Assembly: GCA_002716355.1 (NCBI GenBank)
Contig: PBAU01000010.1
Location: 1-32,000 of the forward strand
Direction: 5' to 3'
Length of the DNA stretch: 32,000 nucleotides
From: a bacterium
GTDB taxonomy: Bacteria; UBP7; UBA6624
This document shows positions 5,820 through 29,558 of this stretch, piece by piece. The first letter of the stretch is position 1. Each line of letters begins with the position of its first letter. The position numbers and the translations under genes are program-made. The notes under the pieces were generated by a model that was not told the origin of the DNA, ran no database searches, and saw only the letters and a list, made by a program, of their open reading frames with translations.

Positions 5820-5820
5820 T

Positions 5821-10644: not shown

Positions 10645-11315
10645 GCTTTCTTGAAAGTCCCCCTATTGCAAATCAAAAACAGGCAAATATTCATGACAAA
10701 AATATACAACCATAAATTTTGCAAAATTGAACGAATATCTGTTGATGAAACAAAATGTAAAAACCTCATAGAGAAAGCGCTAAAAACAATAGTCATAAAA
10801 CCACTGAAAACAAAAACAAAGGTTAATTTTTTAATTTTTTCACGCAGAAAAAACAACACAAAAAACAACCACAGAAAACCAAACAAAAAAGATAAATTTT
10901 TAAAATTAACAGCAATTTGATTGTAAAAATCAATATTGTCTAATCCAACCAAATTATCAGAAGGCATTAAGGTCTCTACTTTTTCTTTAAACCTGGAAAC
11001 ATCCTGTCCTCTTTCAGGGTAAATATTCACTGACCAAAAAATTTGATCTGAAGGAATGTTGCCAAAATCAACATTAAACCTAGAAGATGAAAATTCAAGA
11101 TTCATCTCAGGTGTAAAGATTTCAAAACTTGGAAAAAAATCTTTTGATCCTTCAATATATGTCAAGACATCTTGAAGCTCTTCTTCGGTGTTCAAATAAA
11201 CACTTAAGAACACATTTTTTTGAAAGTAAGAGGAAAAGGAAAAAAGCGCAATGAAAAAAATAAAAAAAAAGTTACAGCAAAAAAGATGTAAAGACTTGTT
11301 TATTTCTTTGTACAA
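10641..11315 (-). CDS. Putative FtsX-like membrane protein (short, divergent)
   Basis: TM1, then an extracytoplasmic loop of about 110 aa beginning VFLSVYLNTEEELQDVL (FtsX ECD-like), then three TMs. It sits directly upstream of the EnvC-like gene. The call rests only on topology and synteny. Confidence 0.4.
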   Translation of the reverse strand: MYKEINKSLHLFCCNFFFIFFIALFSFSSYFQKNVFLSVYLNTEEELQDVLTYIEGSKDFFPSFEIFTPEMNLEFSSSRFNVDFGNIPSDQIFWSVNIYPERGQDVSRFKEKVETLMPSDNLVGLDNIDFYNQIAVNFKNLSFLFGFLWLFFVLFFLREKIKKLTFVFVFSGFMTIVFSAFSMRFLHFVSSTDIRSILQNLWLYIFVMNICLFLICNRGTFKKA

Positions 11316-12010
11316 AATTTACTCCTCAAAACCTTGCTAAAAAATGCAGGATAACAATTTATTATTCTAATTAATCTTCTTGGCTCAAAAAAGATTCTCC
11401 ATAAAAATTCAAAACCAAATTTAACCATTATCAAAGGTGCTCTTGTTTTTTTCATTGAAAAAACATCTAAAGCCCCTCCAACACCAAAATAAACACAGGA
11501 GGTCTTTTTGGTTGCAATCTGCATAATCTCTCGCTCCTGCAGCCCTGCACCCTTGCCTACCAGGACAATTGCTTTTTTGGTTTTACTTATCAAGCCAATT
11601 ACTTCTTTTTGATTTTCAGAAAAGCCATCAAAAGCTTCAATTATTTTTGAATTAAAGTTTAAATAAACCCAATTGTTTTTCAAGCTTTTGCAATCTTGAT
11701 CATTGCCTCCCCAGCAAATAACATTAAAAAAATTTTCCTTCAACAAGCTGGAAACGAGATCTATCCCGGGCAACCTGCGAGCTTTAACACCTAAAAAGAT
11801 CATTGCATAATAAACAGCTATACTTTCAGGTATCCACAAAACATCATCACCAAAATCAAGATCTTTTGTTTTTAGCCAAGTTTCTGGATTTAAGGTAAAA
11901 ACCTTCAAATTTCTATTCTGCTTTGAACAAGATGAAATAAATTCTATTATTTGTTCTTTGTTGGAGATAACAATTTCTCTATCTAGAAAAAAAACTTTTT
12001 TTAAATCCAT
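11300..12010 (-). CDS. WecB/TagA/CpsF family glycosyltransferase (ManNAc-type transferase)
   Basis: VGGALDVFSMKKTRAP and GFEFLWRIFFEPRRLIR match the E. coli WecG motifs VGGTYDVFTGHVKRAP and GLEWLYRLLSQPSRIKR. Confidence 0.85.
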   Translation of the reverse strand: MDLKKVFFLDREIVISNKEQIIEFISSCSKQNRNLKVFTLNPETWLKTKDLDFGDDVLWIPESIAVYYAMIFLGVKARRLPGIDLVSSLLKENFFNVICWGGNDQDCKSLKNNWVYLNFNSKIIEAFDGFSENQKEVIGLISKTKKAIVLVGKGAGLQEREIMQIATKKTSCVYFGVGGALDVFSMKKTRAPLIMVKFGFEFLWRIFFEPRRLIRIINCYPAFFSKVLRSKFCTKK

Positions 12011-12774
12011 TTTGAATTAGCAAACTGAGGTTTTGGTAAATCTTCATTACTGGAAGAGTAAGGAAAACCAGCCCTTTTGCACAAATGATGAATTTTTCCA
12101 CCTTGAGGACCGATACCAAGACCTTTTTGACCATTCATCCATGCAAGCAAAAGAGGATGATACCTAGAGCTAATGATGGCATCTTTTCTTGACAAAAATA
12201 TAAAACTTTTTTTGATATCCTCTGTTTGATGATAAAAATGATTAAAATCACTAAAATTACAAAAATAATTTCTTTTATCTGAAATGAATACAGAATCCGC
12301 TAAAGCGGGAATGAATTGATCGGCTGGATAAGGACACCACACTACTCCCTGCCTGATGGAATTATTGATACAAGGGAGACAGACTGAATCTAAACCTTGT
12401 TTAAGCTTTAAAAAACTTGTTGCTGGCCTTAGTTCAAAAAAATCAAATTTTAAATTAATCAAAAAATTTAACAAAAACTTTTTAAAAGGGCTTTTTAATT
12501 CGGTTAAATCCATATCATAAGCCTGCGCCTTTCTTGAAAATAAAACCATAAAAAAATACCAATAAAAGGATGCGTTTGAAGTTCTATCTTGAAAAAGACC
12601 ACCTCCAGGAAGAATAATATTTTTTAAAAAAGAAAAAGAAAAATTACATTTCTTAGGAATAAAACCCTTGCTGCAAATTCGATTAGTTTCCCATTTTTTC
12701 ATGGCATCATTAAGAATCCAATCATCTCCAAAATTAGCTTGAGAAAAAGACCCTAGCAATATATTTTTATTCAT
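12001..12774 (-). CDS. Polysaccharide pyruvyl transferase family protein (CsaB-like)
   Basis: N-terminal GSFSQANFGDDWIL and C-terminal SSRYHPLLLAWMNGQKGLGI fit the PS_pyruv_trans pattern. It is shorter than a typical CsaB. Confidence 0.55.
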   Translation of the reverse strand: MNKNILLGSFSQANFGDDWILNDAMKKWETNRICSKGFIPKKCNFSFSFLKNIILPGGGLFQDRTSNASFYWYFFMVLFSRKAQAYDMDLTELKSPFKKFLLNFLINLKFDFFELRPATSFLKLKQGLDSVCLPCINNSIRQGVVWCPYPADQFIPALADSVFISDKRNYFCNFSDFNHFYHQTEDIKKSFIFLSRKDAIISSRYHPLLLAWMNGQKGLGIGPQGGKIHHLCKRAGFPYSSSNEDLPKPQFANSKWI

Positions 12775-15570: not shown

Positions 15571-17097
15571 ATGAAGAAATTTTATTTAAATGGCTACAAC
15601 CTAACAGCAAGAATGCTTACGAAGGTTTCTAGAGGGAAGGTAAGTCTCGCAATTGAAGACGAATGCTGGACTCGAATTAACAAATGCAGAAACATGGTTG
15701 AAGAAAAAATCGAAAAAAAAGAACCCATGTATGGAATAAATACAGGAATTGGAGAATTTTCTGAAGTAACATTAAATGAAGAACAAACTCGAAAATTCCA
15801 AAATCACCTTGTTTACTCTCATGCTGCAGGAATAGGAAAGGCAATGTCAAAAGAAATTGTTAGAGGTGCAATGTGTGGAAGAATAAACGTCCATTGCAAA
15901 GGTTTCTCTGGTGGCAGAAAAGAAATCACTGAAAAAATGATTGAAATCCTCAATAGCGATGTAATTCCTTATGTTTGTGAAAAAGGATCTGTAGGAGCAT
16001 GCGGAGACCTTGCTCCAATGAGTCAGATTGCTTTAACCATGATGGGTGAAGGTGATGCTTTCTATAAAGACAAACTAATGAAAGCAAAAGACGCTCTTGC
16101 CAAAGCAAAAATCAAGCCTTTGAAGCTAGAAGCAAGAGATGGCTTGTCAATAATCAATGGTTCAAATGTCCTTACAGCGCTTTCAGCTTTAATCCTCAAT
16201 GATGCAAAATTATGGCTAAAAACACACGACCTTTCAGCCTCAATGACGCTTGAAGCTCTTAATGCAAATATGAGACCCTACAAATCGAAACTTCACGAGC
16301 TAAGAGGTTTTACAGGCTCTAAAAAAGTAGCAAAAAATATCACTGCCTTAACAGAAGGATCAGAAATTCTAAATTCTAAAAATAAAAAACTACAAGATGC
16401 TTACTCTTTGAGATCCACTCCACAAGTAGCAGGAACGCTTAGAGATTCACTTTCATATGCATTGAAACAAGTTGAAATTGAATTAAATGGAGTTGGAGAT
16501 AATCCAATATTTCTGCCAGAAGAAAAAGAGGTTTTAACTGGAGCTAACTTTCAAGGAACTCCTGTAGCGCTACCAATGGAAATGATTGGAACTGGACTAT
16601 CTATGGTTGGAGTGCTTTCAGAAAGGAGAATGAATAGGCTTGTGAACCCAGCTCTTTCAGGGGGACTGCCTCCTTTCCTTACAGAGGATCCGGGTTTTAA
16701 TTCAGGATTAATGGTTAGTCAATACACTGCAGATGCTCTATGTGTAGAAAACAGAATACTCAGTCATCCTGCAGCAAATCAATCCATACCAGCAGCAGCA
16801 GATCAGGAAGATTTTGTTTCAATGGGCTTAACAACAGCGCAAAAAACAAAAAAAATTCTAGAAAACTGTTGGGGCATTCTTGCAATAGAGATGTTGGCAT
16901 CGGCACAAGCTATCGAATTAAGAAAGCCCGCAAAACCAAGTCCAATAATTACTGAAATTGTTAAAGAAATAAGAAAAAACATCAAACATTTAGATGATGA
17001 TAGACCATTGTTTGATGATCATAACAAAATGGTTGAAATTTTAAGAAGCGGCAAACTGGTTCAGATAATAGAAAAGAAACTTGGAAAACTTGAATGA
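15571..17097 (+). CDS. Histidine/aromatic amino-acid ammonia-lyase family enzyme (HutH-like) with Ala-Cys-Gly at the MIO position
   Basis: YGINTGIG, LVYSHAAGIG (Ser-His as in HAL), GSVGACGDLAPM (canonical GSVGASGDLAPL), DAYSLRSTPQ and NQEDFVSM. No hutU or hutI lies nearby. Confidence 0.88.
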   Translation: MKKFYLNGYNLTARMLTKVSRGKVSLAIEDECWTRINKCRNMVEEKIEKKEPMYGINTGIGEFSEVTLNEEQTRKFQNHLVYSHAAGIGKAMSKEIVRGAMCGRINVHCKGFSGGRKEITEKMIEILNSDVIPYVCEKGSVGACGDLAPMSQIALTMMGEGDAFYKDKLMKAKDALAKAKIKPLKLEARDGLSIINGSNVLTALSALILNDAKLWLKTHDLSASMTLEALNANMRPYKSKLHELRGFTGSKKVAKNITALTEGSEILNSKNKKLQDAYSLRSTPQVAGTLRDSLSYALKQVEIELNGVGDNPIFLPEEKEVLTGANFQGTPVALPMEMIGTGLSMVGVLSERRMNRLVNPALSGGLPPFLTEDPGFNSGLMVSQYTADALCVENRILSHPAANQSIPAAADQEDFVSMGLTTAQKTKKILENCWGILAIEMLASAQAIELRKPAKPSPIITEIVKEIRKNIKHLDDDRPLFDDHNKMVEILRSGKLVQIIEKKLGKLE

Positions 17098-17101
17098 CAA
17101 A

Positions 17102-18184
17102 ATGCAAAACTTAGATTCATTTAAAAAAGATTTAAAAAAATTCACAAAAGAAAAAATCAAAACAAGAGCTGAAAAAAACAATGAATCTGAAAAATATGAC
17201 ACGAAAACCGCAGTAGAAATATGCAAGAAAGGATGGCTTGGCATATCCGCTCCTGAAAAGTATGAAGGTGGTGGCAAGGATCCATTATGGACTTATGAAA
17301 TCATAAGAACATTTTCACAAGAAGATATAACAGCTGCAGCAATCATCACTGGTCAATTCACACTGGTTGCAGAAATATTGATTAACGAATGCCAAGAAGA
17401 TATCAAAAATAATTACGTACCTAGGATATTAAATGGTGAGATTAATGGCTGTTATGCATTGACAGAACCAGATGCTGGATCAAATCCTTCCGAAATGAAA
17501 TCAAGGGTTAAAAAAATAGAAAAAGGCTGGATTTTAAATGGTCAAAAAATGTGGATAACAAATGGAAACATAGCAGATTTAGCAATCGTATACGCCAAAG
17601 AAGACGATGCTGTAAGCTGCTTCTTAGTTGATATGAAATCAAAAGGAATATCAAAAACAAAAATACATGGAAAAATGGGATTTAAGTCAAGCGACACTGC
17701 AGAGATATCATTTGAGAACGTATTTATACCTGATCAAAATCGCATAGGCAAGAAAGGGAAAGGTTTAAGTGTTGCATTTAAAGCTTTAGATAATGGGAGG
17801 CTTGGTATATCAGTTATGGCATTGGGTGCAATTGAAGGCATACAAAAAAGATTAATTGAAATCGCAAAAAACAAACCAAGTCAAAAAAATATAGAAGATG
17901 TAGCCAAGGTGGAAGTGATAATCGAATCATGTAAATCACTAATATCAAAAGCAATAGATCTGAAATCAAATAAAAAAAATTTCACCAAATACGCATCTAT
18001 GGCAAAACTTAAATCAACAGAGGGAGCAACAAAAGCAGCAAATATGCTGACTGACAAATCAAGAGATAAGTTTGCAAATAGAGTTTGGAGGGATGTCAGA
18101 GTCATGGAGCTTTTTGAAGGAACTAGCGAAATTCAAAAACTTATAATTGGAAACATGATAACCGGGTTCAAAGCATTTAACTAA
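17102..18184 (+). CDS. Acyl-CoA dehydrogenase family protein, divergent C-terminal domain
   Basis: ALTEPDAGSNPS, WITNG and ELFEGTSEIQ (catalytic Glu position). The ATG at 17102 lies 4 nt after the lyase stop. An in-frame TTG at 17081 is an alternative start. Confidence 0.85.
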   Translation: MQNLDSFKKDLKKFTKEKIKTRAEKNNESEKYDTKTAVEICKKGWLGISAPEKYEGGGKDPLWTYEIIRTFSQEDITAAAIITGQFTLVAEILINECQEDIKNNYVPRILNGEINGCYALTEPDAGSNPSEMKSRVKKIEKGWILNGQKMWITNGNIADLAIVYAKEDDAVSCFLVDMKSKGISKTKIHGKMGFKSSDTAEISFENVFIPDQNRIGKKGKGLSVAFKALDNGRLGISVMALGAIEGIQKRLIEIAKNKPSQKNIEDVAKVEVIIESCKSLISKAIDLKSNKKNFTKYASMAKLKSTEGATKAANMLTDKSRDKFANRVWRDVRVMELFEGTSEIQKLIIGNMITGFKAFN

Positions 18185-19393
18185 TTGAAAAAAAACCAAT
18201 TTTACGAAGATTCATTTTCTATTCCTTATGTCAGAATATTAAACAGCATACTAGCATTCTTGCTTAAGAATAAAGCAAAAGTTAAAAAAATAGAATTTTC
18301 AGAAAGGGACAAAAAAAAACTAAAAAAAACTTTATCAAATGGAGCCCTGATCGCCTGCAATCACCCTACAGATTTTGACCCCCCTTCCCTATACTGCGCA
18401 TTGAGAAAACTAAATCTGGAATTCAGGATAATGACTGCAAGAGATGTAATGTCTAGAACCCCATATATTTTTAGAAAATTAATACAAATGGGTGGCTGCT
18501 TTTCAATAGACAGAACTAAACTTGATAGAAAATCCTTATCAAGGTCAATTGAAATCCTTTCCAGCAAAAAAAATTTGATTGTTTTTCCAGAAGGGAGAAC
18601 ACATGGACAAGGCAACAGAATTCTTGAATACCAGCCAGGCCCAATAAAAATTGCAACGCTTTCTTCCAGAAAAACAAAATCATCTATAAAAATTTTACCA
18701 ATTGCGATTTATTATTCAATAATTGGTGACAAAGATAAAATAATCCAAAAACGATTAGAGGAACTTGAAAAAATACTCAAAATTAAAGCCGATAAAGGAA
18801 ACGACATAGACCTTCGAATTAGCCAAATTGTGCATTTGACAATTAGAAAACTTGAAAAACAAGAAGGGTACGAGGAGCCAGAAAAAAAATACAAAAAATC
18901 TACAGCCAGATGGGAATGGCTAACTTCAAGGATTCAAAAACTGTGTGAAACCTCTATAAAAAATATTGAGATCAAGCTAAAAATAAGACTACTTGAAAAA
19001 GATACGCTTTCTAGCAGGGTGCAGAAAGCAAGAGAAGCAAACGATCTAACAAAAAACAAAAAAGAAAAAAATGCAAATACAAAAAAGATATTGATGCTCC
19101 ATTCATTATCATCCTTGAATTTCAAAAACTGGAAAGAATCACATGAATCAATTGAGGAAATATTGGCAATTTTTTCAAAAGAGATACATAGGCTTATGGA
19201 TAAAAAACATGTTATAAAAACTGAAAAAAAATGTCACTTTAAACTGGGTAAAATCATTGAAGTCAAAAATTTAAAACACTCTACTCCAAGCTCATCTAAA
19301 GAGCATGAAAAAAAATTATTAAACCTGCTCTGGAAATCAACTTGGCAACCTTTAAACGAACTTAAACAGGAGAACAGTACAATTATCAAATGA
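18185..19393 (+). CDS. PlsC/LPLAT-type acyltransferase with a Lys/Glu-rich C-terminal region of about 200 aa
   Basis: HX4D motif NHPTDFD, FPEGRT block and PIAIYY block. The TTG start comes immediately after the ACAD stop. The stop overlaps the next ATG (ATGA). Confidence 0.8.
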   Translation: MKKNQFYEDSFSIPYVRILNSILAFLLKNKAKVKKIEFSERDKKKLKKTLSNGALIACNHPTDFDPPSLYCALRKLNLEFRIMTARDVMSRTPYIFRKLIQMGGCFSIDRTKLDRKSLSRSIEILSSKKNLIVFPEGRTHGQGNRILEYQPGPIKIATLSSRKTKSSIKILPIAIYYSIIGDKDKIIQKRLEELEKILKIKADKGNDIDLRISQIVHLTIRKLEKQEGYEEPEKKYKKSTARWEWLTSRIQKLCETSIKNIEIKLKIRLLEKDTLSSRVQKAREANDLTKNKKEKNANTKKILMLHSLSSLNFKNWKESHESIEEILAIFSKEIHRLMDKKHVIKTEKKCHFKLGKIIEVKNLKHSTPSSSKEHEKKLLNLLWKSTWQPLNELKQENSTIIK

Positions 19394-21072
19394 TGGTTTG
19401 GATAAAAAAAATATTATCAAAAATTCTTTCATTCTCTTTAAAGCCTGAAAATAGCGATCATCTGGCACACCTTTTTGTCATTTCTTGGAAAAAAAACTTT
19501 AAAAAAACTGCAATAACAGAAAACAAAGATGGAAAATGGATCAATATTTCATATGGCGAATTAGGCTTGGCGGTTCATAAGGTTGCAGGATGGCTTAAAA
19601 ACCAAATAGGAAAATCAGAAAAAAGAATTGGCATTTTTCTTCCAAATTCAGCTGGTTTTGTCGTATCTTTTTTCTCATGTCAAATATTAGGCAAAACAGC
19701 AGTTCCTTTAAATTATGCGCTTTCCCCAAAAGAAGTAAAAGATGTTATAAACGATGCTCAAATAAAAACATTACTTACATTTCAAGCACCTGAAGGCAGA
19801 GCAACAAAAATATTCGGCAATACCTTGGACTACCTTCAAAAAGAGATAGATGATTTAAAAATACTAAAATTAAACAAACCTAAAAATCAAAAAGAAATCC
19901 AGAGGTCAAGTTTTCTAAAAAGCCTCCCAAAGCCAAATCCTGAAGACATATCTTGTTACATATACACTTCCGGCTCAACTGGAAAACCTAAAGGCGTAAT
20001 GCTTTCACATGGAAATTTATCTAGCAACCTTTCAGACTTTTGGAAAGTATTAGGAGATACAGAAAATCACACAATAAGCGGAGTCTTACCTCTTTTCCAT
20101 TCTTTTGGATTGACAGCAGGAATGCTTGCTGGAATGCTTTCTGGTGGTAGATTTGTTCCTGTGCCAGCATTTCAACCAAAAATAGTTCTTGACATAATCA
20201 AGTCTCAAAAAATAACCGTTCTTGAACTTGTTCCATCAATGTATAACTCTTTAATAAACGCTGCAAATAGATTAAAGAATCCTGAAAAAGACTTATCTTC
20301 AATACAGTTAGCTGTAGCTGGAGGAGCACCTCTGCCAAGAGAGGTAATTGAAAGATTTGAAAAAATTACAAAAATTCCAATATATGAAGGGTATGGAGCA
20401 AGTGAAACTAGTCCGGTAATTTCATTTAACAGGCCAGGGAAACCTCCAGTTTTTGGAACATGTGGTATTGCTTTTCCAAGTGTAAAAATTCAACTCAGAG
20501 ATGAAAATGGAGATGAAATTACAACTGCGTTAAGCCCTGAAGATAATTCCAAATCACCAATCAAACCAAAAGAAAATGCTGAAGGTGAAATATGGATCAA
20601 AGGACCAAATGTTTTCAAAGGCTACCATGGAAAAGAAAAAGAAACAAATGAAGTATTGATCAATGGGTGGTATCGAACAGGAGATATAGGAAAATTTGAC
20701 AAAAGGGGAAATCTAACAATTTGTGGAAGAGCAAAACACATGATCATAGTTGCTGGAGAAAATGTTTATCCAGCGGAAATTGAAGATGCCGTTATGAAGC
20801 ATCCAGAAGTTAAATCAGTTGTAGCCATTGGAATACCAGATAAAAAAACTGGAGAAAAAATAAAAGCATTCGTAGAGTTAGAAAACCAGAAAGACAACCA
20901 AGAAATAAAAAATAAAATTATTTCTTTCCTGAATCAAACAAAACTACTAGCAACATACAAAATGCCAAAAGAGATAGAAGTTGTCAAGGAAATCCCCATG
21001 CTGCCAACAGGAAAACCTGACATTCCTGCAATTAAGGGCGAAAGAGATCCTATAAAAAACAAAAACTTATAA
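19390..21072 (+). CDS. ANL-superfamily acyl-AMP-forming ligase (acyl-CoA or acyl-ACP synthetase, Aas-like)
   Basis: YIYTSGSTGKPKGVMLSH, GYGASETSP, YRTGDIG, and LPTGKPD (A10 Lys). AVPLNYALSPKE...AQIKTLLT resembles my memory of the E. coli Aas MLNYTAG...AEIKTIFT region. Confidence 0.88.
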   Translation: MMVWIKKILSKILSFSLKPENSDHLAHLFVISWKKNFKKTAITENKDGKWINISYGELGLAVHKVAGWLKNQIGKSEKRIGIFLPNSAGFVVSFFSCQILGKTAVPLNYALSPKEVKDVINDAQIKTLLTFQAPEGRATKIFGNTLDYLQKEIDDLKILKLNKPKNQKEIQRSSFLKSLPKPNPEDISCYIYTSGSTGKPKGVMLSHGNLSSNLSDFWKVLGDTENHTISGVLPLFHSFGLTAGMLAGMLSGGRFVPVPAFQPKIVLDIIKSQKITVLELVPSMYNSLINAANRLKNPEKDLSSIQLAVAGGAPLPREVIERFEKITKIPIYEGYGASETSPVISFNRPGKPPVFGTCGIAFPSVKIQLRDENGDEITTALSPEDNSKSPIKPKENAEGEIWIKGPNVFKGYHGKEKETNEVLINGWYRTGDIGKFDKRGNLTICGRAKHMIIVAGENVYPAEIEDAVMKHPEVKSVVAIGIPDKKTGEKIKAFVELENQKDNQEIKNKIISFLNQTKLLATYKMPKEIEVVKEIPMLPTGKPDIPAIKGERDPIKNKNL

Positions 21073-21074
21073 AC

Positions 21075-21206
21075 ATGAAAGAATTCTTTAAAAGAATCAT
21101 CAATCTGTTTAAACCCTTTTCATCAAATTTTGAAAAAGAGCTTAAACAAGAAATGGAAAAAGAAAAAAAAGAACAACTAAAAAGAGACAGGTTTAGAAAA
21201 AACTAA
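21075..21206 (+). CDS. Possible 43-aa basic small protein ([43 protein letters not shown])
   Basis: An ATG-to-TAA ORF fills the only sizeable gap between the convergent operons. Its stop overlaps the etfA stop. It is below the ORF-track length cutoff and no homolog is recognisable. Confidence 0.25.
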
Positions 21207-22084
21207 ACGCTAACCCACTTTTCAAGCACCTCTTTCCAGTCAGCAACAATTCCATAATCACATATATCAAATATCGGAGCATTTCTATCAGTGTTTATCG
21301 CAACTATCACAGAGGAATTCTGTATTCCTGCTCTATGCTGAACAGCTCCTGATATCCCAAAGGCAACATAAAGTTTAGGACTTACTGACTTTCCAGTTTG
21401 ACCAATCTGATGTGAATAATCAATCCAACCCATGTCAACAACAGCTCTTGAAGCCCCAACTGCTGCATCAAGCTTTCCTGCAAGCTTCTTCAGTGATTCA
21501 AAACCTTCTGGACCTTGTATACCTCTTCCTCCTGAAACAACCACATCTGCAGATGTTACATCCTTGTTCTCATCGCTACTTTCTACTGATTCAAGAATTT
21601 CAAATGAAACTGAATCCTGCCCATCAAGAGAGACCACTGAAGGATTTTTTGCTTCCCTAGCGCTTGAGTCAATTGCCTTGGAATTAAATTGAACACAACC
21701 GGAAGAAATCTTTGATGTATAAAGAACCTTTCCACCAAAACCGTATTTCTGCAAAACAATATCGCTATCATCCTTACAGTAATCAAAACCATGACAGCCC
21801 CAAACTACAGGCTCATAAGCACTAACAGAAAAAGAAGCCAATATTTCGCCAGTAAAACCATCATCCAAGCCAACAATAACAACCTGTTCATCAAAATGAT
21901 CAGACAGTCTCCTTCCTGATTTAATAGAGTTATTTGAATCTACATGTATCAAATCTTCAACACCGAAGAAATCAAAATCACATTTTTCACCTATCCAAAT
22001 AGCACCATCTGCTGAAATCTGATTTGACAATTTTGCACAAAGATCTTTATCACTGTGAGTATGAGCTAATATAAAAATCTTCAT
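21203..22084 (-). CDS. etfA: Electron transfer flavoprotein alpha (large) subunit
   Basis: C-terminal FAD domain motifs [43 protein letters not shown] and VAINTD. Confidence 0.9.
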
Positions 22085-22842
22085 CAGAAACCCTCCTTTT
22101 TCAACTCTGCATGAAAGTCAGAAAAGGACTCAATGCCTTCCCATATTTTATTTTTTCTCTCTTTTTTAACATTTTCAACATTAACAACCTCACATCTCTG
22201 ATCAAACTCAAGGGCTTTTTGGTTAATGTCTAAATCTGAAATGGCTAATTTTTCAGGCTGAGGCGCTGACAAAACAGCCATTACATCTGGTATCCTAGGT
22301 TCAGCAACAGTTTTATAAACCGACAAAACAGATGGGTTTTTTACTTTTGCTTTTGTTTTTTTCCCTTGATAGTTAAAAACAACAATTGGCTCAGATGAAA
22401 AATCCTCAACTGAAGAAACTTGATTTAAACAATCCCATCCCAAAAGAGACGCAATTGCAGAAGGCAACAATCCACCCTTTCCATCAGCAGCTGATGCACC
22501 GCATATAACCATTCCAGCATTAACCTTTTTTGCTAATGCAGCAAAAACATTAGCTGTAGCAACTAAATCAGCACCATTTAATGAATCATCAAAAATATGG
22601 CAACAAGAAGCACAACCCATTGCACCAAGTTCAGACAACATTTCAGAAGCCGACTCAGGACCCATTGTCGCAAGGACAACCTCACCAGAAACAGATTCAG
22701 CTATTTGGATTGCAAGCTCAACAGCAGATTCATCATCAGGATTAACAGTTTTTGGAACACTTTCTCTATTAACTATGCCATTTTTACCAAAAGTTAAATC
22801 GGTAGTAGCAGGGACTTGTTTTGCTAAAACTAATATTTTCAT
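22084..22842 (-). CDS. etfB: Electron transfer flavoprotein beta (small) subunit
   Basis: [11 protein letters not shown] and [11 protein letters not shown] match the EtfB N-terminal pattern. 1-nt overlap with etfA and ATGA overlap with the ACAD. The central [10 protein letters not shown] region diverges from the usual D.D..QVG motif. Confidence 0.85.
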
Positions 22843-24083
22843 TTTTTCACCTCATTTAATAATTCTTCAGGTATCCATTGATCTATTGTTGGTATGAAGG
22901 AATCAAGAAATTTGAGAGACGTAGCCTCACGTGCAACATGCCTGCTAACAACAAGTCTTTGGATTTGATTTGTTCCTTCGTAAATTTGAGTGATCTTTGC
23001 ATCTCTCATATACTTTTCAACTGGATAATCTTTCATAAAACCATATCCACCAAAAATCTGAACAGCTTCTGTTGTAACCCACATCGCTGTATCAGTTGCA
23101 AAAAGCTTACCCTGGGCAGCCATCTTGTTTGCCTTAGCCTTCAATGATGGATCTTTATCAGCAGCGTCAATCATTCTTGCAGATTCATAAACTAACTGCC
23201 TTGCTGCTTCAATTCTTGTAGACATATCAGCTAGAAGAAATCCTATTGATTGGTGATTTTGTATAGGTTGACCAAATTGTCTTCTTCTGGAAGCAAACCT
23301 AGAAGCATATTCAAATGCTCCTTGAGCACAGCCTAAAGCTTGAGCTGCAACACCAGGTCTTGCATGGTCAAGAGTCTCCATTGCAATCTTAAAACCTTTA
23401 CCTTCAGAATCGCCTAAAAGATTCCATTTTGGAACGGCACAATCTCTAAAATAGAGCTCTCTTACAGGAACACACCTAATCCCCATCTTGTCTTCTTCTT
23501 TTCCTAGCTCAAAACCGTCTGTTCCCTTTTCTACAACTACTGCTGAAATGGCAGAGGGTTTTCCAACCTGGCTTGGATTAGTGACTCCAAAAACTGAATA
23601 ATAATGTGCCACTCCACCATTTGTATTCCACTTTTTATCACCATTAATCACATACTCATCATCATTTTTAGAGATAAGAGTTTTTAAATCTGAAGCATTT
23701 GATCCAGCCATTTTTTCAGACAAAGCAAAAGAGATCAACCTTTCACCATTTGCAATTTCAGGTAACCACTTTTGCTTCTGCTCCTCTCTTCCCCCTAAAA
23801 TTATTGGGTAGGAGCCTAGAGCATTTACTGCAAACATAACACCTACTCCACCACATGCTCTAGATAATTCCTCAACAACCAAGCAAAGATTCAAGCTTCC
23901 AAGGCCATTGCCTCCATACTCTTTAGGTATCCAAGTTTTTAGCAAACCACTTTCTGCAAGAGCTTCTTTAACTTTCCATGGATACTCCTGTTTCCTGTCG
24001 TGCTCAGAAGCTAAAGGCCTTACAACGTTTTCTGCAACATGTTTCGCCTTTTCTTTAATTTCAAAATTTACACTATCTAACAT
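22839..24083 (-). CDS. Acyl-CoA dehydrogenase (canonical, short/medium-chain-like) with a C-terminal tail of about 30 aa
   Basis: ALSEKMAGSNAS, KWNTNG, RRQFGQPI, IFGGYGF and QIYEGTNQIQ. The start lies 1 nt after the fabF stop. Confidence 0.92.
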   Translation of the reverse strand: MLDSVNFEIKEKAKHVAENVVRPLASEHDRKQEYPWKVKEALAESGLLKTWIPKEYGGNGLGSLNLCLVVEELSRACGGVGVMFAVNALGSYPIILGGREEQKQKWLPEIANGERLISFALSEKMAGSNASDLKTLISKNDDEYVINGDKKWNTNGGVAHYYSVFGVTNPSQVGKPSAISAVVVEKGTDGFELGKEEDKMGIRCVPVRELYFRDCAVPKWNLLGDSEGKGFKIAMETLDHARPGVAAQALGCAQGAFEYASRFASRRRQFGQPIQNHQSIGFLLADMSTRIEAARQLVYESARMIDAADKDPSLKAKANKMAAQGKLFATDTAMWVTTEAVQIFGGYGFMKDYPVEKYMRDAKITQIYEGTNQIQRLVVSRHVAREATSLKFLDSFIPTIDQWIPEELLNEVKK

Positions 24084-24084
24084 A

Positions 24085-25320
24085 TCAAGATCTCCTTAAA
24101 ACTAAACAGGCATTATGCCCTCCAAATGCAAAAGAATTTGACATTGACACATTAACAACCGAATCCCTCGCATCATTAGGAGTATAGTCTAAATCACAAT
24201 CAGGATCATTCGTGTTGTAATTTATCGTTGGAGGCACAATATTTTCTCTCATTGAAACAACACAAGCAGCGCACTCTATTGCACCAGCAGCACCTAACAA
24301 ATGACCATGCATACCTTTTGTGCTTGAAATGTTCAATTTGCCAACATCTGAACCAAAAGTTAATTTAATTGCATTCGTTTCCATCAAGTCATTAAATTTT
24401 GTAGAAGTTCCATGAGCGTTAAGGTAATCAACTTCAGAAACAGGAATCTGAGCATCCCTTAAAGCAAATTCCATAGCCTTTGACGGGGATTCTCCGTTTA
24501 AGTTTGGTGATGTTATGTGGTAAGCGTCACTCGTGACAGCATAACCAGCAACCTCAGCTAAAGGAACACCTCCTCTCTTTTTTAAACTTTGCTCACTTTC
24601 AAGAATAAAAGCGACAGAACCCTCTCCCATTACAAAACCGCTTCTGTCCATGTCAAATGGTCGACTCGCTTCAGATGGATTATCATTAAAATTGCATGCC
24701 AATGCTTTCATGTTTGAAAAACCAGCTAAGGAAGTTGGTGCTATAGCTCCTTCGGCTCCTCCGGTAACCATTACATCCATAATTCCATTTCTAATCAAAT
24801 GAAAAGCTTCTCCTATTGCTATTGTTCCAGTAGCACAAGCTGCAACTGGAGCCGTCGAATAACCTTTTAATCCATATTTAATTGATATCCATCCAGGAGC
24901 TATATTGCATATATTTTTTGGGATGTAAAAAGGACTTATAAACCTGGGGCCCTTTTTAAAATATTTATCAAATTGAGTATGATGCTCCCACATTCCGCCT
25001 ATTCCGCTACTTAAATTAACGCCTACCCTATAAGGATCTATTTCTTCAAAATTGATATCTGAATTTTCTACAGCCTCCTGAGCTGCTGCCATTGAAAACT
25101 GTGTAAACCTATCCATTTGCCTTGAATCTTTTGGATTGATATGCTCTGTAGGGTCCCAATTAGGAACCTCACAAGCAACCTGGCATTTGTGATTGGCAAC
25201 ATCAAATAAAGAAATATTTCTAACAGTAGATTCACCTTTTAGCAAACCTTTCTGCAGGCTTGAAAAGCCATTACCAAACGGTGTCACTGCACCAATACCT
25301 GTAATAAAAACCCTTGTCAT
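24085..25320 (-). CDS. fabF: 3-oxoacyl-ACP synthase II
   Basis: Active-site ACATG, HGTSTKFND and GHLLGAAG. About 410 aa. ATGA overlap with fabG. Confidence 0.93.
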   Translation of the reverse strand: MTRVFITGIGAVTPFGNGFSSLQKGLLKGESTVRNISLFDVANHKCQVACEVPNWDPTEHINPKDSRQMDRFTQFSMAAAQEAVENSDINFEEIDPYRVGVNLSSGIGGMWEHHTQFDKYFKKGPRFISPFYIPKNICNIAPGWISIKYGLKGYSTAPVAACATGTIAIGEAFHLIRNGIMDVMVTGGAEGAIAPTSLAGFSNMKALACNFNDNPSEASRPFDMDRSGFVMGEGSVAFILESEQSLKKRGGVPLAEVAGYAVTSDAYHITSPNLNGESPSKAMEFALRDAQIPVSEVDYLNAHGTSTKFNDLMETNAIKLTFGSDVGKLNISSTKGMHGHLLGAAGAIECAACVVSMRENIVPPTINYNTNDPDCDLDYTPNDARDSVVNVSMSNSFAFGGHNACLVLRRS

Positions 25321-26072
25321 GAAACGTCCATACCTCCATTAACTTTTAAAATTTGGCCAGTTACATAAGAAGACTGATCAGAAGACAGAAAAGCAACTGC
25401 AGAGGCAACATCTTCAGGTTGGCCAAATTTCTTCATAGGTATAACACTTAAATAAAACTCCCTCATACTTTTGTTTATATCCTTAGACATATCAGTATCA
25501 ATCAAACCAGGACTAACACAATTGACTGTCACATTCCTATCTGCAAACTCTCTTGACATAACTCGCATCAAGCCTTCAATTCCAGATTTGCTTGCTGCAT
25601 AATTGGATTGTCCAGGCCCTCCAACTGAAGCTGAAACACTTGAGATAAACACAATTCTTCCAAACCTTTTCTTAAGCATTTTTTTTACAGCAATCCTAGA
25701 GCAATAAAATGCACTATTCAAATTTACATCTATAACTTTGTTCCAGCTATCATTTTTCATCATTGATGCAGGTGCATCTTGCCTAATTCCACAACAATGT
25801 ACAAAAATATCAATTCCTGAAAGGAAACTTAAAGATTCTTTCATGAAGCGATCACATTCATCTTGGGAAGAAAGATCAGCGCATAAAGCTTTCACCTTTG
25901 AATTACCAAGAGAAAATTCCGATTCTACAGATTCTGCCAGGTCATGATCACTTCTGTAACCTAAAACTATATTAGAAGAATAGGATGAAAATAATTTTGC
26001 AACTGAATAACCTATGCCTCTTATCCCTCCTGTGATAACAATATTCTTACCTGAAAAATCAAAATTCAACAC
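25317..26072 (-). CDS. fabG: 3-oxoacyl-ACP reductase
   Basis: TGGIRGIG, the NYAASKSG catalytic motif and VNCVSPGLIDTDM. Confidence 0.9.
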   Translation of the reverse strand: MLNFDFSGKNIVITGGIRGIGYSVAKLFSSYSSNIVLGYRSDHDLAESVESEFSLGNSKVKALCADLSSQDECDRFMKESLSFLSGIDIFVHCCGIRQDAPASMMKNDSWNKVIDVNLNSAFYCSRIAVKKMLKKRFGRIVFISSVSASVGGPGQSNYAASKSGIEGLMRVMSREFADRNVTVNCVSPGLIDTDMSKDINKSMREFYLSVIPMKKFGQPEDVASAVAFLSSDQSSYVTGQILKVNGGMDVS

Positions 26073-26078
26073 AAACGA

Positions 26079-26987
26079 TTACCCCTCTTTACCCATACCA
26101 AATTGCAAATAATTAACCTTAGGTCTATTGTCCTCCCTAGGAATCATATTAAATAAAATTTTTCCAGGACCAACGTCAACCCAAGAATCAAAACTAAACC
26201 TGGAAAGCTCCTTTAAATTTTGCACCCATCTGACAGCTCCTTCAATTTGGTTTATCAAATTATCTTTAATAGAAGAAGGATTGTCTTCATGCATGCAGCC
26301 AGTGAAATTCGAAGCGACTGGCCATGCTGAAGATTTAAATTCAACATCTTTCATAAAATGTTTCATTCTTTCCTTTGCCTCTTTCATTAAAGGAGAATGA
26401 AAAGGTGCTGAAACCTTAAGTTCAACGGCTTTTAGATATCCAAAATCCCTTGCTGTCTCAACGGCTCTTTTTATAGCCTGCATATCACCCGAAAGCACAG
26501 TTTGTTTTTGAGTATTAAAATTAGCAGGGACAAGACAAAAATCACCCTTGCAAGCCTCAAGTAAATCATCAAGATTACCAGAGCCAAGAAGAGCAACCAT
26601 TCCACCTTGACCTTCTTTGACAGCCTCCTGCATTGCTTTTCCTCTTTCCCTCACAAGCCTTAACCCATTCTCATAAGATATTACACCTGATGAAACCAAG
26701 GCTGTATACTCACCTAAAGAATGTCCTGCTGCTGCAACAGGGCTCAACTCATAAATATTTACCAAATATTTATGGGCTGCATAACCGACTGCCAAAAGAG
26801 CCGGTTGAGCGTTTTCAGTTAAGGTTAAATCATCCATAGGCCCTTCAAAAATTAATTTTGAAAGATTGAACCCTAAAATTTGATCAGCTTCATAAATAAG
26901 CTTAATTGATTCTTCACTACCTTTCAAAAAATCAGCCATACCGACTTTTTGAGCACCTTGACCAGGGTACAAAAAGCAATAACTCAT
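26079..26987 (-). CDS. fabD: Malonyl-CoA:ACP transacylase
   Basis: FLYPGQGAQKVGM and GHSLGEYTAL. The ATG at 26987 forms an ATGA overlap with the fabH stop. The longer track ORF to 27056 would run inside fabH. Confidence 0.92.
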   Translation of the reverse strand: MSYCFLYPGQGAQKVGMADFLKGSEESIKLIYEADQILGFNLSKLIFEGPMDDLTLTENAQPALLAVGYAAHKYLVNIYELSPVAAAGHSLGEYTALVSSGVISYENGLRLVRERGKAMQEAVKEGQGGMVALLGSGNLDDLLEACKGDFCLVPANFNTQKQTVLSGDMQAIKRAVETARDFGYLKAVELKVSAPFHSPLMKEAKERMKHFMKDVEFKSSAWPVASNFTGCMHEDNPSSIKDNLINQIEGAVRWVQNLKELSRFSFDSWVDVGPGKILFNMIPREDNRPKVNYLQFGMGKEG

Positions 26988-27973
26988 ATCTTTTTCCATT
27001 TGATCAAGACAGAACCCCATGCAAAACCTGCACCAAAGCTTGTCATCAAAACCCAATCCCCATCCTTAAGCATATTCTTATTGTTTGCATCTTCAGCCAA
27101 TATAGGAATTGTTCCATTTGTAGTATTGGCATATTTGTCAATATTAATAGGACATTTACTTTTATCAAGTTTTAACCTTTTTGCAATCGCCTCAATCATG
27201 ACCCCATTTGCCTGATGAAAGAGATGACAACCTATATCAGAAGGATCAAGAGAATTCTTTTCGCAAATATCCTTAACCATTTGAACAAATCTTCTTATCC
27301 CAACTTTATAAACCTTGCTTCCATCCATCCTTACAAAGTGCTCTTTCTTGCTTACTGTTTCTTTTGTTGCGGGGCTTATGGAACCTCCAGAAGGCATATA
27401 TAAATATTTACCACCAGAACCATCAGAACCCAACAAAACATCATGGACACCGTAGTCACCCTCTTCACCTTCCAGCAAAACAGCTCCTGCCCCATCACCA
27501 AAAAGAACAGCTGTTGAACGGTCCTCCATGTCAAGTATAGAACTCATGATGTCACCACCACAAACCAGTATTTTTTTATGAAGTCCAGAAGATATCATTC
27601 CGGAAGCCATTGAAACACCGTAAACAAAACCAGGACATGCATTCACTAAGTCAAAAGCACCTGCATTAACAGCTCCAAGTTTATCTTGAACCAAATTAGC
27701 TGTATTTGGAAACATCATATCTGGAGTAACAGTTGCAACAATTATTAAATCTAATTCCTCAGCCGACACGCCCCTTTTCTTCAAAGCCTTTTCAGCAGCG
27801 CTTACACAATACTTACTTAAACCTTCACCTTTGTCTGCAAATCTTCTTTCTCCAATCATTGATCTTTCTCTTATCCATTCGTCACTAGTGTCCATAACTT
27901 TAGACAAATCATCATTTGTGTAAACTTTATCAGGAACAGATGTCCCAATCGATGTGATAACAGCTCTAATCAT
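26984..27973 (-). CDS. fabH: 3-oxoacyl-ACP synthase III
   Basis: NACPGFVYG (active Cys), HQAN and GNTTNG-like NTTNGT motifs. The ATG at 27973 has GGAG 8 nt upstream. An alternative ATG lies at 27985. Confidence 0.92.
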   Translation of the reverse strand: MIRAVITSIGTSVPDKVYTNDDLSKVMDTSDEWIRERSMIGERRFADKGEGLSKYCVSAAEKALKKRGVSAEELDLIIVATVTPDMMFPNTANLVQDKLGAVNAGAFDLVNACPGFVYGVSMASGMISSGLHKKILVCGGDIMSSILDMEDRSTAVLFGDGAGAVLLEGEEGDYGVHDVLLGSDGSGGKYLYMPSGGSISPATKETVSKKEHFVRMDGSKVYKVGIRRFVQMVKDICEKNSLDPSDIGCHLFHQANGVMIEAIAKRLKLDKSKCPINIDKYANTTNGTIPILAEDANNKNMLKDGDWVLMTSFGAGFAWGSVLIKWKKI

Positions 27974-28958
27974 TTTTTTCTCCATTTTGTCTCATTATTA
28001 AATTTTTCATATGTTTGATTGCATTAAAAATCGCCTTTGGATTTGAAGAGCCATGACATATGAAAAAAGGTTTCTTCAAGCCAAGCAACGGCGCTCCTCC
28101 ATACTCAGAATAATCCAATCTTTTTTTAACACTTTTTAATGATTTTTTTATTCCACCTTTAGCCAAGGGTATAAAAATATTACTTCTTGCAGATTCCTTA
28201 AGCCCTGAAGCAAGCATTTCCATCAAAGAAACAGCTATACCTTCAGCAAATTTCAAAATAACATTTCCTACAAAACCATCACAAACAACAACATTTATCT
28301 CTTTACCCTGACCTCCAACCTGTCTCCCTTCAATGTTTCCTACAAAATTAAACAATCCTTCTGATGACGCTTCATCCATCAGGTCGTAAGCTTTTATGGA
28401 CTCCCTATCACCCTTGCCTTTTTCAGATCCAATATTTAACAATCCAACTGTTGGATTTTTTTTACCTGACCAAAAACTATAAAACTCACTGCCTAACTTC
28501 GCAAACATTAAAAGATCTTCTGCTTTTGTGTCTACATTTGCACCAACATCAAGCAAAAAAACTGGATTTTCACTTGTGGGTATAAATGTTCCTAAAACTG
28601 GTTTTCTGACATCTTTCCTCTTGAGGTACTTGGAAGCAGCAACAACAGAGGCTCCTGAATGACCTGCTGAAATTGTCCCATGCGAAAGGTCATCTCCAGA
28701 AAATTTAGTCGCAAGCCCTAATGAGGTCATTTTTAACTTCTTAAGAAAAGAGATAGGTTTTTCACTCATGCTAACCTCCTCTTCTGTGTGTTTAATAGTT
28801 ATGTGTCCAGCCTTTCTGTTGTTTAAAAGTTTATTGATTTTTGTTTCATCACCAAATAAAACTAAATTGACATTAAGTTCAGATGCCAATAAAGCACCTT
28901 CAACTATAGACTCAGGTGCATCATCTCCACCCATGGCATCCAAAGATATAGTTATCAC
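27966..28958 (-). CDS. plsX: Phosphate acyltransferase
   Basis: MITISLDAMGGDDAP N-terminus, VVCDGFVGNVILK and HGSSN motifs. Confidence 0.92.
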   Translation of the reverse strand: MITISLDAMGGDDAPESIVEGALLASELNVNLVLFGDETKINKLLNNRKAGHITIKHTEEEVSMSEKPISFLKKLKMTSLGLATKFSGDDLSHGTISAGHSGASVVAASKYLKRKDVRKPVLGTFIPTSENPVFLLDVGANVDTKAEDLLMFAKLGSEFYSFWSGKKNPTVGLLNIGSEKGKGDRESIKAYDLMDEASSEGLFNFVGNIEGRQVGGQGKEINVVVCDGFVGNVILKFAEGIAVSLMEMLASGLKESARSNIFIPLAKGGIKKSLKSVKKRLDYSEYGGAPLLGLKKPFFICHGSSNPKAIFNAIKHMKNLIMRQNGEKND

Positions 28959-29005: not shown

Positions 29006-29479
29006 TTACGAGGAAGAGTTTGGGCTAAAAGGAAGAGAAGAATGGTGAATGTCAATTTTTAAACTTCCATCAACAAGCTTATAGCCAAACGTATACTCCA
29101 CCTTAACCTCAACACCTTCCAAACTAGTAAAAAAATAATTCCCCATTGCGATAGCTCTGTCTTCCTCCAGGATAAAACTTAAATTTTGAAATCTTATATT
29201 ACTCCAGGGCTCTAATGCAAACCCTTTGTCCTCGGCACAGTGCTTGTTTTCACCTGCGATGAAATAAGAAAGTGCTTGTAATTTTGTGGTTCTAAACTGC
29301 TCTTCTGCACATTTTGTAGGCTTAAACAACAAGGGGCCTAATTCAAAAGCGTATCTTTTATCTAAAAATTCATTTGCAAAAGATTCACATTCCAACCTGC
29401 TCTCTTTTAATGAGCCGATCTTTATTACGCCTTCTGCCCATTTGCTTTGAGCATCTAATACCTGATCTTTACTAATCAT
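29006..29479 (-). CDS. Hypothetical protein, probably NTF2/SnoaL-like fold
   Basis: 157 aa. The W..G pattern near the N-terminus and a C-terminal GSLKIDIHHSSLP resemble NTF2-like/CaMKII-association-type domains. The fold call is weak. Confidence 0.4.
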   Translation of the reverse strand: MISKDQVLDAQSKWAEGVIKIGSLKESRLECESFANEFLDKRYAFELGPLLFKPTKCAEEQFRTTKLQALSYFIAGENKHCAEDKGFALEPWSNIRFQNLSFILEEDRAIAMGNYFFTSLEGVEVKVEYTFGYKLVDGSLKIDIHHSSLPFSPNSSS

Positions 29480-29486
29480 AATTCAA

Positions 29487-29558
29487 CAGCCCGTAGGGGA
29501 ATCGAACCCCTATTTCCACCTTGAGAGGGTGGCGTCCTATCCGTTAGACGAACGGGCC
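29487..29558 (-). tRNA. tRNA-Glu (anticodon CUC)
   Basis: The reverse complement GGCCCGTTCGTCTAACGGATAGGACGCCACCCTCTCAAGGTGGAAATAGGGGTTCGATTCCCCTACGGGCTG folds as a cloverleaf. Acceptor is 7 bp (G1-U72 wobble), D stem GTCT/GGAC, anticodon stem CCACC/GGTGG with loop CTCTCAA, T arm AGGGG-TTCGATT-CCCCT. No CCA is encoded. It is similar in layout to E. coli tRNA-Glu. Confidence 0.9.

Follow-up and report, generated by a model that had tools for sequence, protein, structure and literature searches.

The window studied here is a 32,000-nucleotide stretch of bacterial DNA (positions 1 to 32,000 of the forward strand of contig PBAU01000010.1, assembly GCA_002716355.1, GTDB lineage UBP7; UBA6624). On its minus strand it carries an operon in which the genes of type II fatty-acid synthesis (FAS), plsX-fabH-fabD-fabG-fabF, run into an acyl-CoA dehydrogenase (ACAD) and the two subunits of an electron-transferring flavoprotein (ETF, or Etf), etfB and etfA. 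The preferred explanation, to which a probability of about 0.45 is assigned, is that ACAD-etfBA is a de-bifurcated relic of an FAS-linked module, now running oxidatively. The module would have descended from an ACAD-EtfB-(ferredoxin-)EtfA cassette that closes, or lies within, the plsX-fabHDG-acpP-fabF operon in many anaerobic phyla, and in the anaerobic lineages this cassette would be a plausible Car/Bcd-type enoyl-thioester reductase. In the aerobic marine lineage of the window, the cassette would have stayed put while its ferredoxin domain and most of the bifurcating (NADH/second-FAD) residues were lost. The reduction of enoyl-acyl carrier protein (ACP) would be carried out by FabI. Electrons would pass from acyl-CoA to the ACAD, then to the alpha-FAD of the ETF, to an ETF:quinone oxidoreductase of the FixCX type and finally to the respiratory chain, and the same ETF would serve three other ACADs. 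This oxidative reading is the best supported because of the presence of FabI, an oxidase, FixCX and a single ETF, together with the loss of the NADH/second-FAD signatures. The comparisons also point to descent from the anaerobic FAS-linked module rather than to an independent juxtaposition.

The operon and its genes

Open reading frame (ORF) calls combined with Pfam and NCBIfam profile searches define eight tightly joined ORFs on the minus strand, in the order plsX-fabH-fabD-fabG-fabF-ACAD-etfB-etfA:

27966-28958 (-): plsX, phosphate acyltransferase, first gene of the operon (TIGR00182, 260.6 bits, above the cut-off of 243.4; PF02504)
26984-27985 (-): fabH, beta-ketoacyl-ACP synthase III (NF006829, 369.9 bits, above the cut-off of 249)
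26079-26987 (-): fabD, malonyl-CoA:ACP transacylase (TIGR00128, 248.2 bits, just below the cut-off of 260.9; aligned from residue 25)
25317-26072 (-): fabG, 3-oxoacyl-ACP reductase (NF009466, 252.6 bits, above the cut-off of 222)
24085-25320 (-): fabF, beta-ketoacyl-ACP synthase II (TIGR03150, 542.3 bits, above the cut-off of 493.75)
22839-24083 (-): ACAD, acyl-CoA dehydrogenase, 414 aa (PF02771, PF02770 and PF00441)
22084-22842 (-): etfB, small Etf subunit, 252 aa (PF01012)
21203-22084 (-): etfA, large Etf subunit, 293 aa (PF00766 only)

The core FAS genes plsX, fabH, fabD, fabG and fabF are all recognisable and stand in canonical order, four of the five scoring above the curated cut-offs. 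fabD likely starts at the ATG at 26987, which follows the fabH stop immediately, and the longest ORF extends to 27056. Read from the sequence, the fabF/ACAD junction is TGA-T-ATG, which corresponds to a 1-nt gap, the ACAD/etfB junction is an ATGA overlap and the etfB/etfA junction (TGATG) is a 1-nt overlap. The ORFs, the profile matches and the sequence itself confirm the layout and the junctions given in a preliminary description of this DNA, as well as its statement that the operon contains no enoyl-ACP reductase. The ACP gene acpP is also missing from the operon, since fabG and fabF meet in an ATGA overlap as well, leaving no acpP between them.

The eight genes probably form one real transcription unit. 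Consensus scans for internal promoters that would split the operon gave fewer candidates than shuffled sequence, and those for internal terminators gave about as many. The fabF-ACAD-etfB-etfA joins recur in independent TARA Oceans marine metagenome assemblies, which rules out a binning artefact. Purifying selection acts on all eight genes, with ratios of nonsynonymous to synonymous substitution rates (dN/dS) between 0.026 and 0.24. The Etf subunits are the least constrained genes of the operon (0.085-0.24).

Conservation of the linkage and its occurrence in other phyla

The GTDB phylum comprises eight species genomes, all of them metagenome-assembled genomes (MAGs) with a completeness of 71-93%. 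Seven belong to one family, which includes the window's genome (G000; 1.26 Mb, 86.6% complete) and the genomes G001-G006, whereas G007 stands alone in the second family. The fabF-ACAD-etfB-etfA order is found in all six other genomes of the family, covering both genera, and in G005 and G006 the operon was seen in full. The genome G007 contains plsX-fabH-fabD-fabG-fabF-etfB-etfA, with the ACAD orthologue on another contig, and the genes that flank this block are unrelated to those of G000 or G006. The preliminary description had tied the meaning of the fabF-acd-etfBA junction to its fate in relatives. The junction is kept in the six family members, persists as fabF-etfB-etfA in G007 and recurs in other phyla.

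When species genomes were scanned with an ACAD profile, 80 loci were obtained, and in 13 of these the ACAD adjoins FAS genes (L112, L115, L116, L118, L119, L124, L130, L139, L142, L143, L144, L146 and L148). They belong to Omnitrophota, Ratteibacteria, Hyd24-12, Aegiribacteria, Nitrospirota and further MAGs. The linked ACAD is usually placed directly after fabF or fabF-rnc, and etfB and a ferredoxin-fused etfA usually come next. In six loci (L112, L115, L119, L130, L139 and L142) ACAD-etfB-etfA lies on the same strand, after or inside the FAS operon, and in L142 the triad is inserted between fabH and fabD. A genome search added four further FAS-linked cases (G009, G011, G018 and G021). No description of an Etf-dependent enoyl-ACP reductase, or of ACAD-Etf modules in FAS operons, was found in the literature searched. 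The nearest report is that of Matheus Carnevali 2019 (PMC6349859), in which Bcd next to EtfAB in Margulisbacteria and Saganbacteria is read as Bcd/EtfAB without a link to FAS. The FAS-embedded ACAD-Etf modules of anaerobes may represent an energy-conserving enoyl reductase.

The genome G000 is very compact. About 96% of it is coding, neighbouring genes on the same strand are a median of -1 nt apart, 68% of the gaps measure at most 5 nt and 18 runs of at least eight tightly packed genes are present. Gap-free junctions are thus the genome background and, therefore, no evidence by themselves of functional coupling. Unlike the tight joins, the retention of the linkage by relatives and its reappearance in other phyla do exceed chance. 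The same compactness is the starting point of an alternative in which a catabolic ACAD-etfBA landed beside the FAS genes by genome compaction, with neither descent from nor functional tie to the modules of anaerobes. The coding density and the median gap are consistent with it, and so are the positions of the other ACADs of G000, embedded among unrelated housekeeping genes (tsaB, glyS, thyX and rnd), the joining of hutH in one run with unrelated lipid genes, and the stand-alone position of the closest ACAD relatives in four other phyla. On the other hand, the order and strand of FAS, ACAD, etfB and etfA are identical in Omnitrophota and others, and the less compact 2.1-Mb genome G007 is also linked. 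The Etf is nearest to the bifurcating Car/Bcd/EtfABCX types, which is the kind that is FAS-linked elsewhere. Finally, the genes that stand between these blocks elsewhere, acpP and rnc, have moved out together. Chance adjacency is considered unlikely and, judged from these comparisons, the linkage looks inherited and not a mere by-product of streamlining.

Family and phylogeny of the acyl-CoA dehydrogenase

The ACAD is a Bcd/SCAD/MCAD-like protein with a C-terminal extension of about 25 aa and a 6-aa insert. Its best solved relative is the Bcd of C. difficile (5OL2_C, 350 bits), and in the alignment to 5OL2_C the catalytic Glu motif IYEGT is intact ('kitqiyegtnqiqr'). None of the named ACAD equivalogs, such as cyclohexane-carbonyl-CoA dehydrogenase or FadE, was reached, the best being AcrC with 398.7 bits versus a cut-off of 640.

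In a quick maximum-likelihood tree of 96 ACADs two sister clades are formed. Clade A (43 rows) is composed mostly of anaerobic phyla and includes every FAS-linked and Etf-linked ACAD from other phyla. Clade B (49 rows, SH-aLRT of 100) contains longer ACADs, most of them with a C-terminal extension, from Planctomycetota, Acidobacteriota, Gemmatimonadota, Eisenbacteria and the window's phylum. The linkage in the window's family was either retained from the common ancestor of clades A and B or independently re-created. Retention is favoured because the order and the strand are identical to those of clade A, because the Etf belongs to the bifurcating lineage and because acpP and rnc are found together off-locus (G004, G007).

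A separate observation concerns the surroundings of the clade-B genes. In three of the seven clade-B loci mapped (five of them with annotated neighbours), a stand-alone ACAD lies beside lipoate/glycine-cleavage genes, namely those of an LplA/LipB-type ligase, a LipA-like radical SAM protein and GcvP (L100 6214-6957, L105 9830-10822, L102 8179-11178), which may be a coincidence.

Class and signatures of the Etf

The Etf was classified by the group-2 markers described in PMC10734219 and PMC12630350. The nearest solved relatives of both subunits are all bifurcating (CarDE, T. maritima EtfABCX and C. difficile Bcd-Etf) and, for EtfB, the group-1 structures fall below all the bifurcating ones (33-52 bits versus 1EFV, 1EFP and 1O94). 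The preliminary description had noticed that the central motif of EtfB departs from the norm. The alignment bears this out, and the departure turned out to be diagnostic: in the nucleotide-phosphate motif G(R/K)QAIDGDTAQVG, the segment DGDTAQVG is rewritten to DGKGGLLP in the window. The same region reads GASSADGKSGMVP in G006 and GLRSADGNAGQMG in G007, and the erosion is progressive within the phylum, from DGNAGQMG (G007) to DGKSGMVP (G006) and to the form seen in the window.

The GxxSPTxV loop of the small subunit wraps the bifurcating FAD (PMC10734219). It is absent from the C-terminal part of EtfB from the window, G005, G004, G006 and G007. The FAS-linked Etf of G021 keeps the EtfB consensus and its loop reads GSPTVV. 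The RxGV motif of EtfB, a site where mutants keep partial activity (PMC10734219), is RESV in the window, REGV in G006 and REKA in G007. In the large subunit, the Arg of RPxFGG (Arg140) is essential for ferredoxin reduction (PMC10734219). The corresponding segment is KYGFGG in the window, KQGMGG in G006 and KSNFGG in G007, and FAS-linked EtfAs from other phyla read RPAFGG or RPAYGG here. The FAS-linked Etf of G021 retains the EtfB motif, the loop and RPxFGG alike. The window EtfA contains no ferredoxin domain with its Cys clusters (293 aa versus 394-414 aa in the ferredoxin-fused EtfAs). Deletions have shortened its domain I, which PF01012 fails to recognise even at E<=0.01. The FAD domain II remains intact and, like the partner-recognition loop, is well conserved.

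The question of whether the Etf is bifurcating, raised in the preliminary description, receives a divided answer. The protein is not group 1 by descent, but the ferredoxin domain is absent, three of the five group-2 signatures fail and a fourth is altered, so that only Gly123 of EtfB is kept. As judged from these motifs, the Etf appears to derive from the bifurcating type and has most likely lost bifurcation. A clostridial-type NADH/ferredoxin-coupled reduction by this Etf is unlikely.

The Etf locus detected by PF01012 is single in each of G000, G005, G004 and G006 and, therefore, that Etf must serve all four ACADs encoded in G000. On contig C5 of G000 are encoded a FixC-like flavoprotein with the quinone-binding domain of ETF:quinone oxidoreductases (PF21162) and a FixX-like protein (PF05187) with its Cys ligands intact. 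The two FixC/FixX-like genes are placed directly after pntA-pntAB-pntB (proton-translocating transhydrogenase) on the same strand (G000:C5 L057 6898-11477 (-)). The host is an aerobic, streamlined marine bacterium, whose genome encodes a heme-copper oxidase subunit I. The beta-oxidation-type set of G000 is complete and comprises, besides the four ACADs, four enoyl-CoA hydratases, an Hbd-type 3-hydroxyacyl-CoA dehydrogenase and three thiolases, and an acyl-CoA ligase is present within the window.

Enoyl reductase, dehydratase and acyl carrier protein

The preliminary description proposed that the ACAD/ETF pair supplies or supplements the enoyl-reduction step of FAS, a proposal that a conventional FabI elsewhere would help to refute. 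The whole-genome search found one at G000:C5:111750-112556, with 269 aa and the Tyr-x6-Lys motif intact. The match to NF006266 (367 bits) is below the equivalog cut-off of 441, and the top matches are 12 FabI models. FabI was detected in five of the seven family genomes (G000 and four others). The notion of a genome devoid of enoyl reductase was rejected on account of this gene. The conserved linkage speaks for the proposal, but with FabI encoded elsewhere and the Etf signatures lost, ACAD/ETF is probably not the enoyl-reduction step in this organism.

The dehydration step is less conventional. FabZ/FabA (PF07977) was matched in none of the eight genomes of the phylum, and a custom FabZ hidden Markov model run on all six-frame ORFs of G000 gave nothing below E=2. 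Dehydratases of the MaoC and PS-DH types were also not detected in any of the eight genomes. Both places where fabZ usually lies are vacant in G000: lpxD and lpxA abut (G000:C8:29129-30852) with no fabZ between them, and LpxC is an unfused, stand-alone protein of 263 aa (G000:C13:25688-26476), whereas distant comparison genomes carry LpxC-FabZ fusions. The whole phylum has conserved FabH, FabD, FabG and FabF, and the window's family also FabI. The phylum-wide lack of a recognisable 3-hydroxyacyl-ACP dehydratase points to the replacement of an enzyme considered universal in type II FAS. Candidates for this role were rejected. The only hotdog protein found by the 4HBT model, a conserved protein at G000:C5:136754-137449, carries a pair of 4HBT domains and was interpreted as an acyl-CoA thioesterase. 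In G007, the genes that follow etfA were considered as crotonase-type dehydratases and encode AIRC- and PAP2-family proteins.

The ACP is also unusual. The G000 assembly gave no match to PF00550. A divergent ACP-like gene, the only one of the phylum, is found in G004 (L037 1387-1692), G001 (L038), G006 (L039) and G007 (L036 1462-1731). Its product scores about 23-30 bits to PF00550 and has DLQMGSLEM in the place of DLGADSLDT. The gene is located away from the FAS operon, in the order rpmF-acp-rnc in G004, and acp and rnc adjoin in G007 too. The RNase III encoded beside it in G004 (L037 1699-2703) has 334 aa and a C-terminal tail of TTTRKVVKTTGTPSK-like repeats, partly masked.

These two features are the basis of another alternative, in which ACAD/ETF is an acyl-ACP dehydrogenase system that back-tracks saturated acyl-ACP to trans-2-enoyl-ACP for the synthesis of unsaturated or 3-hydroxy-acyl chains. 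The missing FabZ/FabA, MaoC and PS-DH enzymes and the divergent ACP would fit such a system. FabX of Helicobacter (PMC8626469) is a precedent for a flavin dehydrogenase inside FAS, and ACAD-family examples of acyl-ACP specificity (MbtN and the prolyl-ACP dehydrogenases) are among the weaker matches of the window protein. However, an ACAD is chemically unable to replace a dehydratase. The protein is closest to the CoA-dependent Bcd, SCAD and MCAD enzymes, the acyl-ACP models match it weakly (MbtN, 65 bits versus a cut-off of 700) and no isomerase partner was identified. An acyl-ACP dehydrogenase system is highly improbable.

Points against the oxidative reading, and a possible continuing role in fatty-acid synthesis

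Several observations weigh against the reading of the module as a relic that runs oxidatively. The first group concerns its origin. The window ACAD is placed in clade B, and in this clade a linkage to FAS or ETF occurs only in the window's family. The clade-B relatives elsewhere, at 57-63% identity, are stand-alone among unrelated housekeeping genes. Owing to this placement, the descent of the linkage from the clade-A arrangement is not proven.

The second group concerns the Etf and its electron flow. Gly123 of EtfB (A. fermentans numbering) is reported to be invariant in bifurcating Etfs and leaves room for the second FAD (PMC12630350). It is retained (in the form ADG) in every EtfB of the phylum that was aligned, namely those of the window, G005, G004, G006 and G007. 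The cofactor content of EtfB and the oxidative direction of electron flow are deduced, as neither of them is readable from sequence.

The third group points to a tie with FAS. Within the operon, constraint is strongest on the ACAD (dN/dS 0.026-0.036), which is more conserved than FabF or FabH. The FAS-etfBA adjacency outlasted a divergence of the two families to about 30% EtfB identity, while the flanks changed. Such persistence exceeds simple inertia and hints at selection for co-expression with FAS. FabI was not found in G007 (93% complete), and FabK was not found in G007 or in G000, G001, G003, G004 and G006. Given the absence of FabZ, the FAS of this phylum is non-canonical in some way.

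In a further alternative, ACAD/ETF would still work in FAS, as a second or alternative enoyl-thioester reductase and as the sole one in G007. The ETF would then be reduced by other dehydrogenases, or by menaquinol via a reversed FixCX, and not by NADH bifurcation. The retention of FAS-(ACAD)-etfBA in both families, the strong constraint on the ACAD and the apparent lack of FabI and FabK in G007 all favour this role. The genomes of other phyla that contain the FAS-linked module point in the same direction. True FabI was found in none of these 17 genomes (best matches of 24-31% identity), and a full-length FabK-like protein is present in six and absent from the remaining 11. FabV was also found in none of the 17, a result that is uninformative because the control genomes gave no match either. 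A canonical ETF is able to drive Bcd reductively in F. nucleatum (PMC12630350). A Mqn-like gene of the futalosine pathway near fabI, read by eye only, suggests that menaquinone is present. The potential of menaquinone would permit enoyl reduction.

On the other hand, the window's family has FabI, and both the NADH/beta-FAD signatures and the ferredoxin domain are gone from the Etf. In an aerobe equipped with a full beta-oxidation set, this single ETF has four ACADs to serve. Moreover, the genomes that seem to lack an enoyl reductase may hold FabL-type reductases of the short-chain dehydrogenase/reductase family. A continuing role as enoyl-thioester reductase is for these reasons doubtful. A related proposal, in which the phylum runs a substantially non-canonical type II FAS, lacking a FabZ-type dehydratase and having a divergent ACP at another locus, and ACAD/ETF still acts as an enoyl-thioester reductase without bifurcation, the sole one in the G007 lineage, is rather improbable. 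If true, the FAS-embedded Car/Bcd-type reductase of anaerobes would have given rise here to an aerobic, iron-sparing derivative, the ACAD/ETF.

The de-bifurcated, oxidatively running relic remains the preferred reading. The lineage offers a natural comparison: it respires O2, is streamlined, has kept the linkage, has gained or kept FabI and has lost the ferredoxin domain along with most bifurcation residues. Either it shows the fate of the module once bifurcation is not useful, or it provides a simpler, iron-poor version that would be easier to study biochemically.

Neighbouring genes in the window

The following features flank the operon:

15571-17097 (+): hutH, histidine ammonia-lyase (NF006871, 555 bits, above the cut-off)
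17081-18184 (+): second ACAD (ACAD2), 367 aa (ACAD profile matches)
18185-19393 (+): PlsC-type acyltransferase, 402 aa (PF01553)
19390-21072 (+): acyl-CoA/ACP ligase (AMP-ligase) (NF004837, 372 bits; Aas-like match, 272 bits)
29006-29479 (-): 157-aa protein, metal-independent carbonic anhydrase homologue, just upstream of plsX (NF047901, E 5.6e-29, below the cut-off)
29487-29558 (-): tRNA-Glu(CTC), upstream of the 157-aa gene and upstream limit of the protein-coding run (ARAGORN)

The four plus-strand genes (15571-21072) are translationally coupled, converge on the FAS operon and are conserved in G005. The AMP-ligase also matches the acyl-ACP synthetase half of Aas-type proteins and, together with the PlsC-type acyltransferase, looks like a split Aas (lysophospholipid acylation). 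The preliminary description had offered, as a second option, that ACAD/ETF links FAS to this lyase cassette. The option was not sustained: by its score the lyase is an ordinary histidine ammonia-lyase, and each of the five genomes tested has urocanase. A Car-like aryl-acrylate pathway, composed of ammonia-lyase, ligase, ACAD and Etf, was rejected as well, because the lyase passes the cut-off of the histidine ammonia-lyase subfamily and urocanase is encoded. ACAD2 is likely another client of the single ETF; otherwise no specific link between the cassette and FAS was seen.

The gene of the 157-aa protein was seen upstream of plsX in the window's genus only (it is present in G005 and is not found upstream of plsX in G006 and G007) and probably lies outside the conserved operon unit. 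The carbonic anhydrase homologue could supply bicarbonate for the synthesis of malonyl-CoA. It was also considered as a substitute for FabZ and rejected, being a carbonic anhydrase homologue that lies upstream of plsX in one genus only. Further away, at 2234-12774 (-), the window contains twelve overlapping or abutting ORFs, and the G+C content falls to about 31% around 10-13 kb.

Comparison with known systems

The closest solved counterpart of the ACAD is the Bcd-EtfAB complex (C. difficile 5OL2; A. fermentans 4KPU/4L1F). The window ACAD has 5OL2_C as its best match and keeps the catalytic Glu motif, both Etf subunits match those of 5OL2 and 4KPU, and the gene order ACAD-etfB-etfA is shared. 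In contrast, the window EtfB has a rewritten motif and no GxxSPTxV, and the EtfA has Lys in the place of the Arg of RPxFGG and a shortened domain I. The host here is aerobic and encodes FixCX and an oxidase, and the operon partner is FAS instead of crotonase, Hbd and thiolase.

The caffeyl-CoA reductase-Etf complex CarCDE (Acetobacterium woodii, 6FAH) provides the best solved matches of the Etf, with 90 bits for CarD and 149.7 bits for CarE over the C-terminal part. The N-terminal two-cluster ferredoxin domain of CarE is common to the FAS-linked modules of other phyla and absent from the window EtfA. CarC, unlike its partners, is a mid-ranking match of the window ACAD (243 bits).

The FAS-embedded ACAD-EtfB-(ferredoxin-)EtfA modules of anaerobic phyla resemble the window operon in their position directly after fabF, in order and strand, and in the sister relationship of the ACAD clades. 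They differ in that the window ACAD belongs to clade B and has the C-terminal extension, and in that the bifurcation signatures are lost in the window. The EtfA of those modules is usually ferredoxin-fused, with about 394-414 aa, whereas that of the window has 293 aa. Moreover, the window lineage has acpP and rnc off-locus, FabI and O2 respiration.

The EtfABCX/FixABCX systems (T. maritima 7KOE; Azotobacter Fix) share with the window's genome the FixC/FixX-like genes, and the T. maritima Etf is the second-best solved match of both subunits. Here, however, FixCX is not beside etfBA but on another contig, after pntAB, and neither Arg140 of RPxFGG nor GxxSPTxV, both of which were shown to be critical for bifurcation, is kept.

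The canonical group-1 ETF with its ETF:quinone oxidoreductase (mitochondria, Paracoccus) shares the working mode proposed here, in which one electron-transferring FAD connects several ACADs to a quinone reductase. The canonical ETF-Bcd couple of F. nucleatum (PMC12630350) is grouped with it for the same comparison. On the other hand, the window EtfB keeps a Gly where canonical ETFs carry a bulky residue, the AMP/FAD phosphate-binding motif shared by both types is altered, and the sequence affinity to group 1 is lower.

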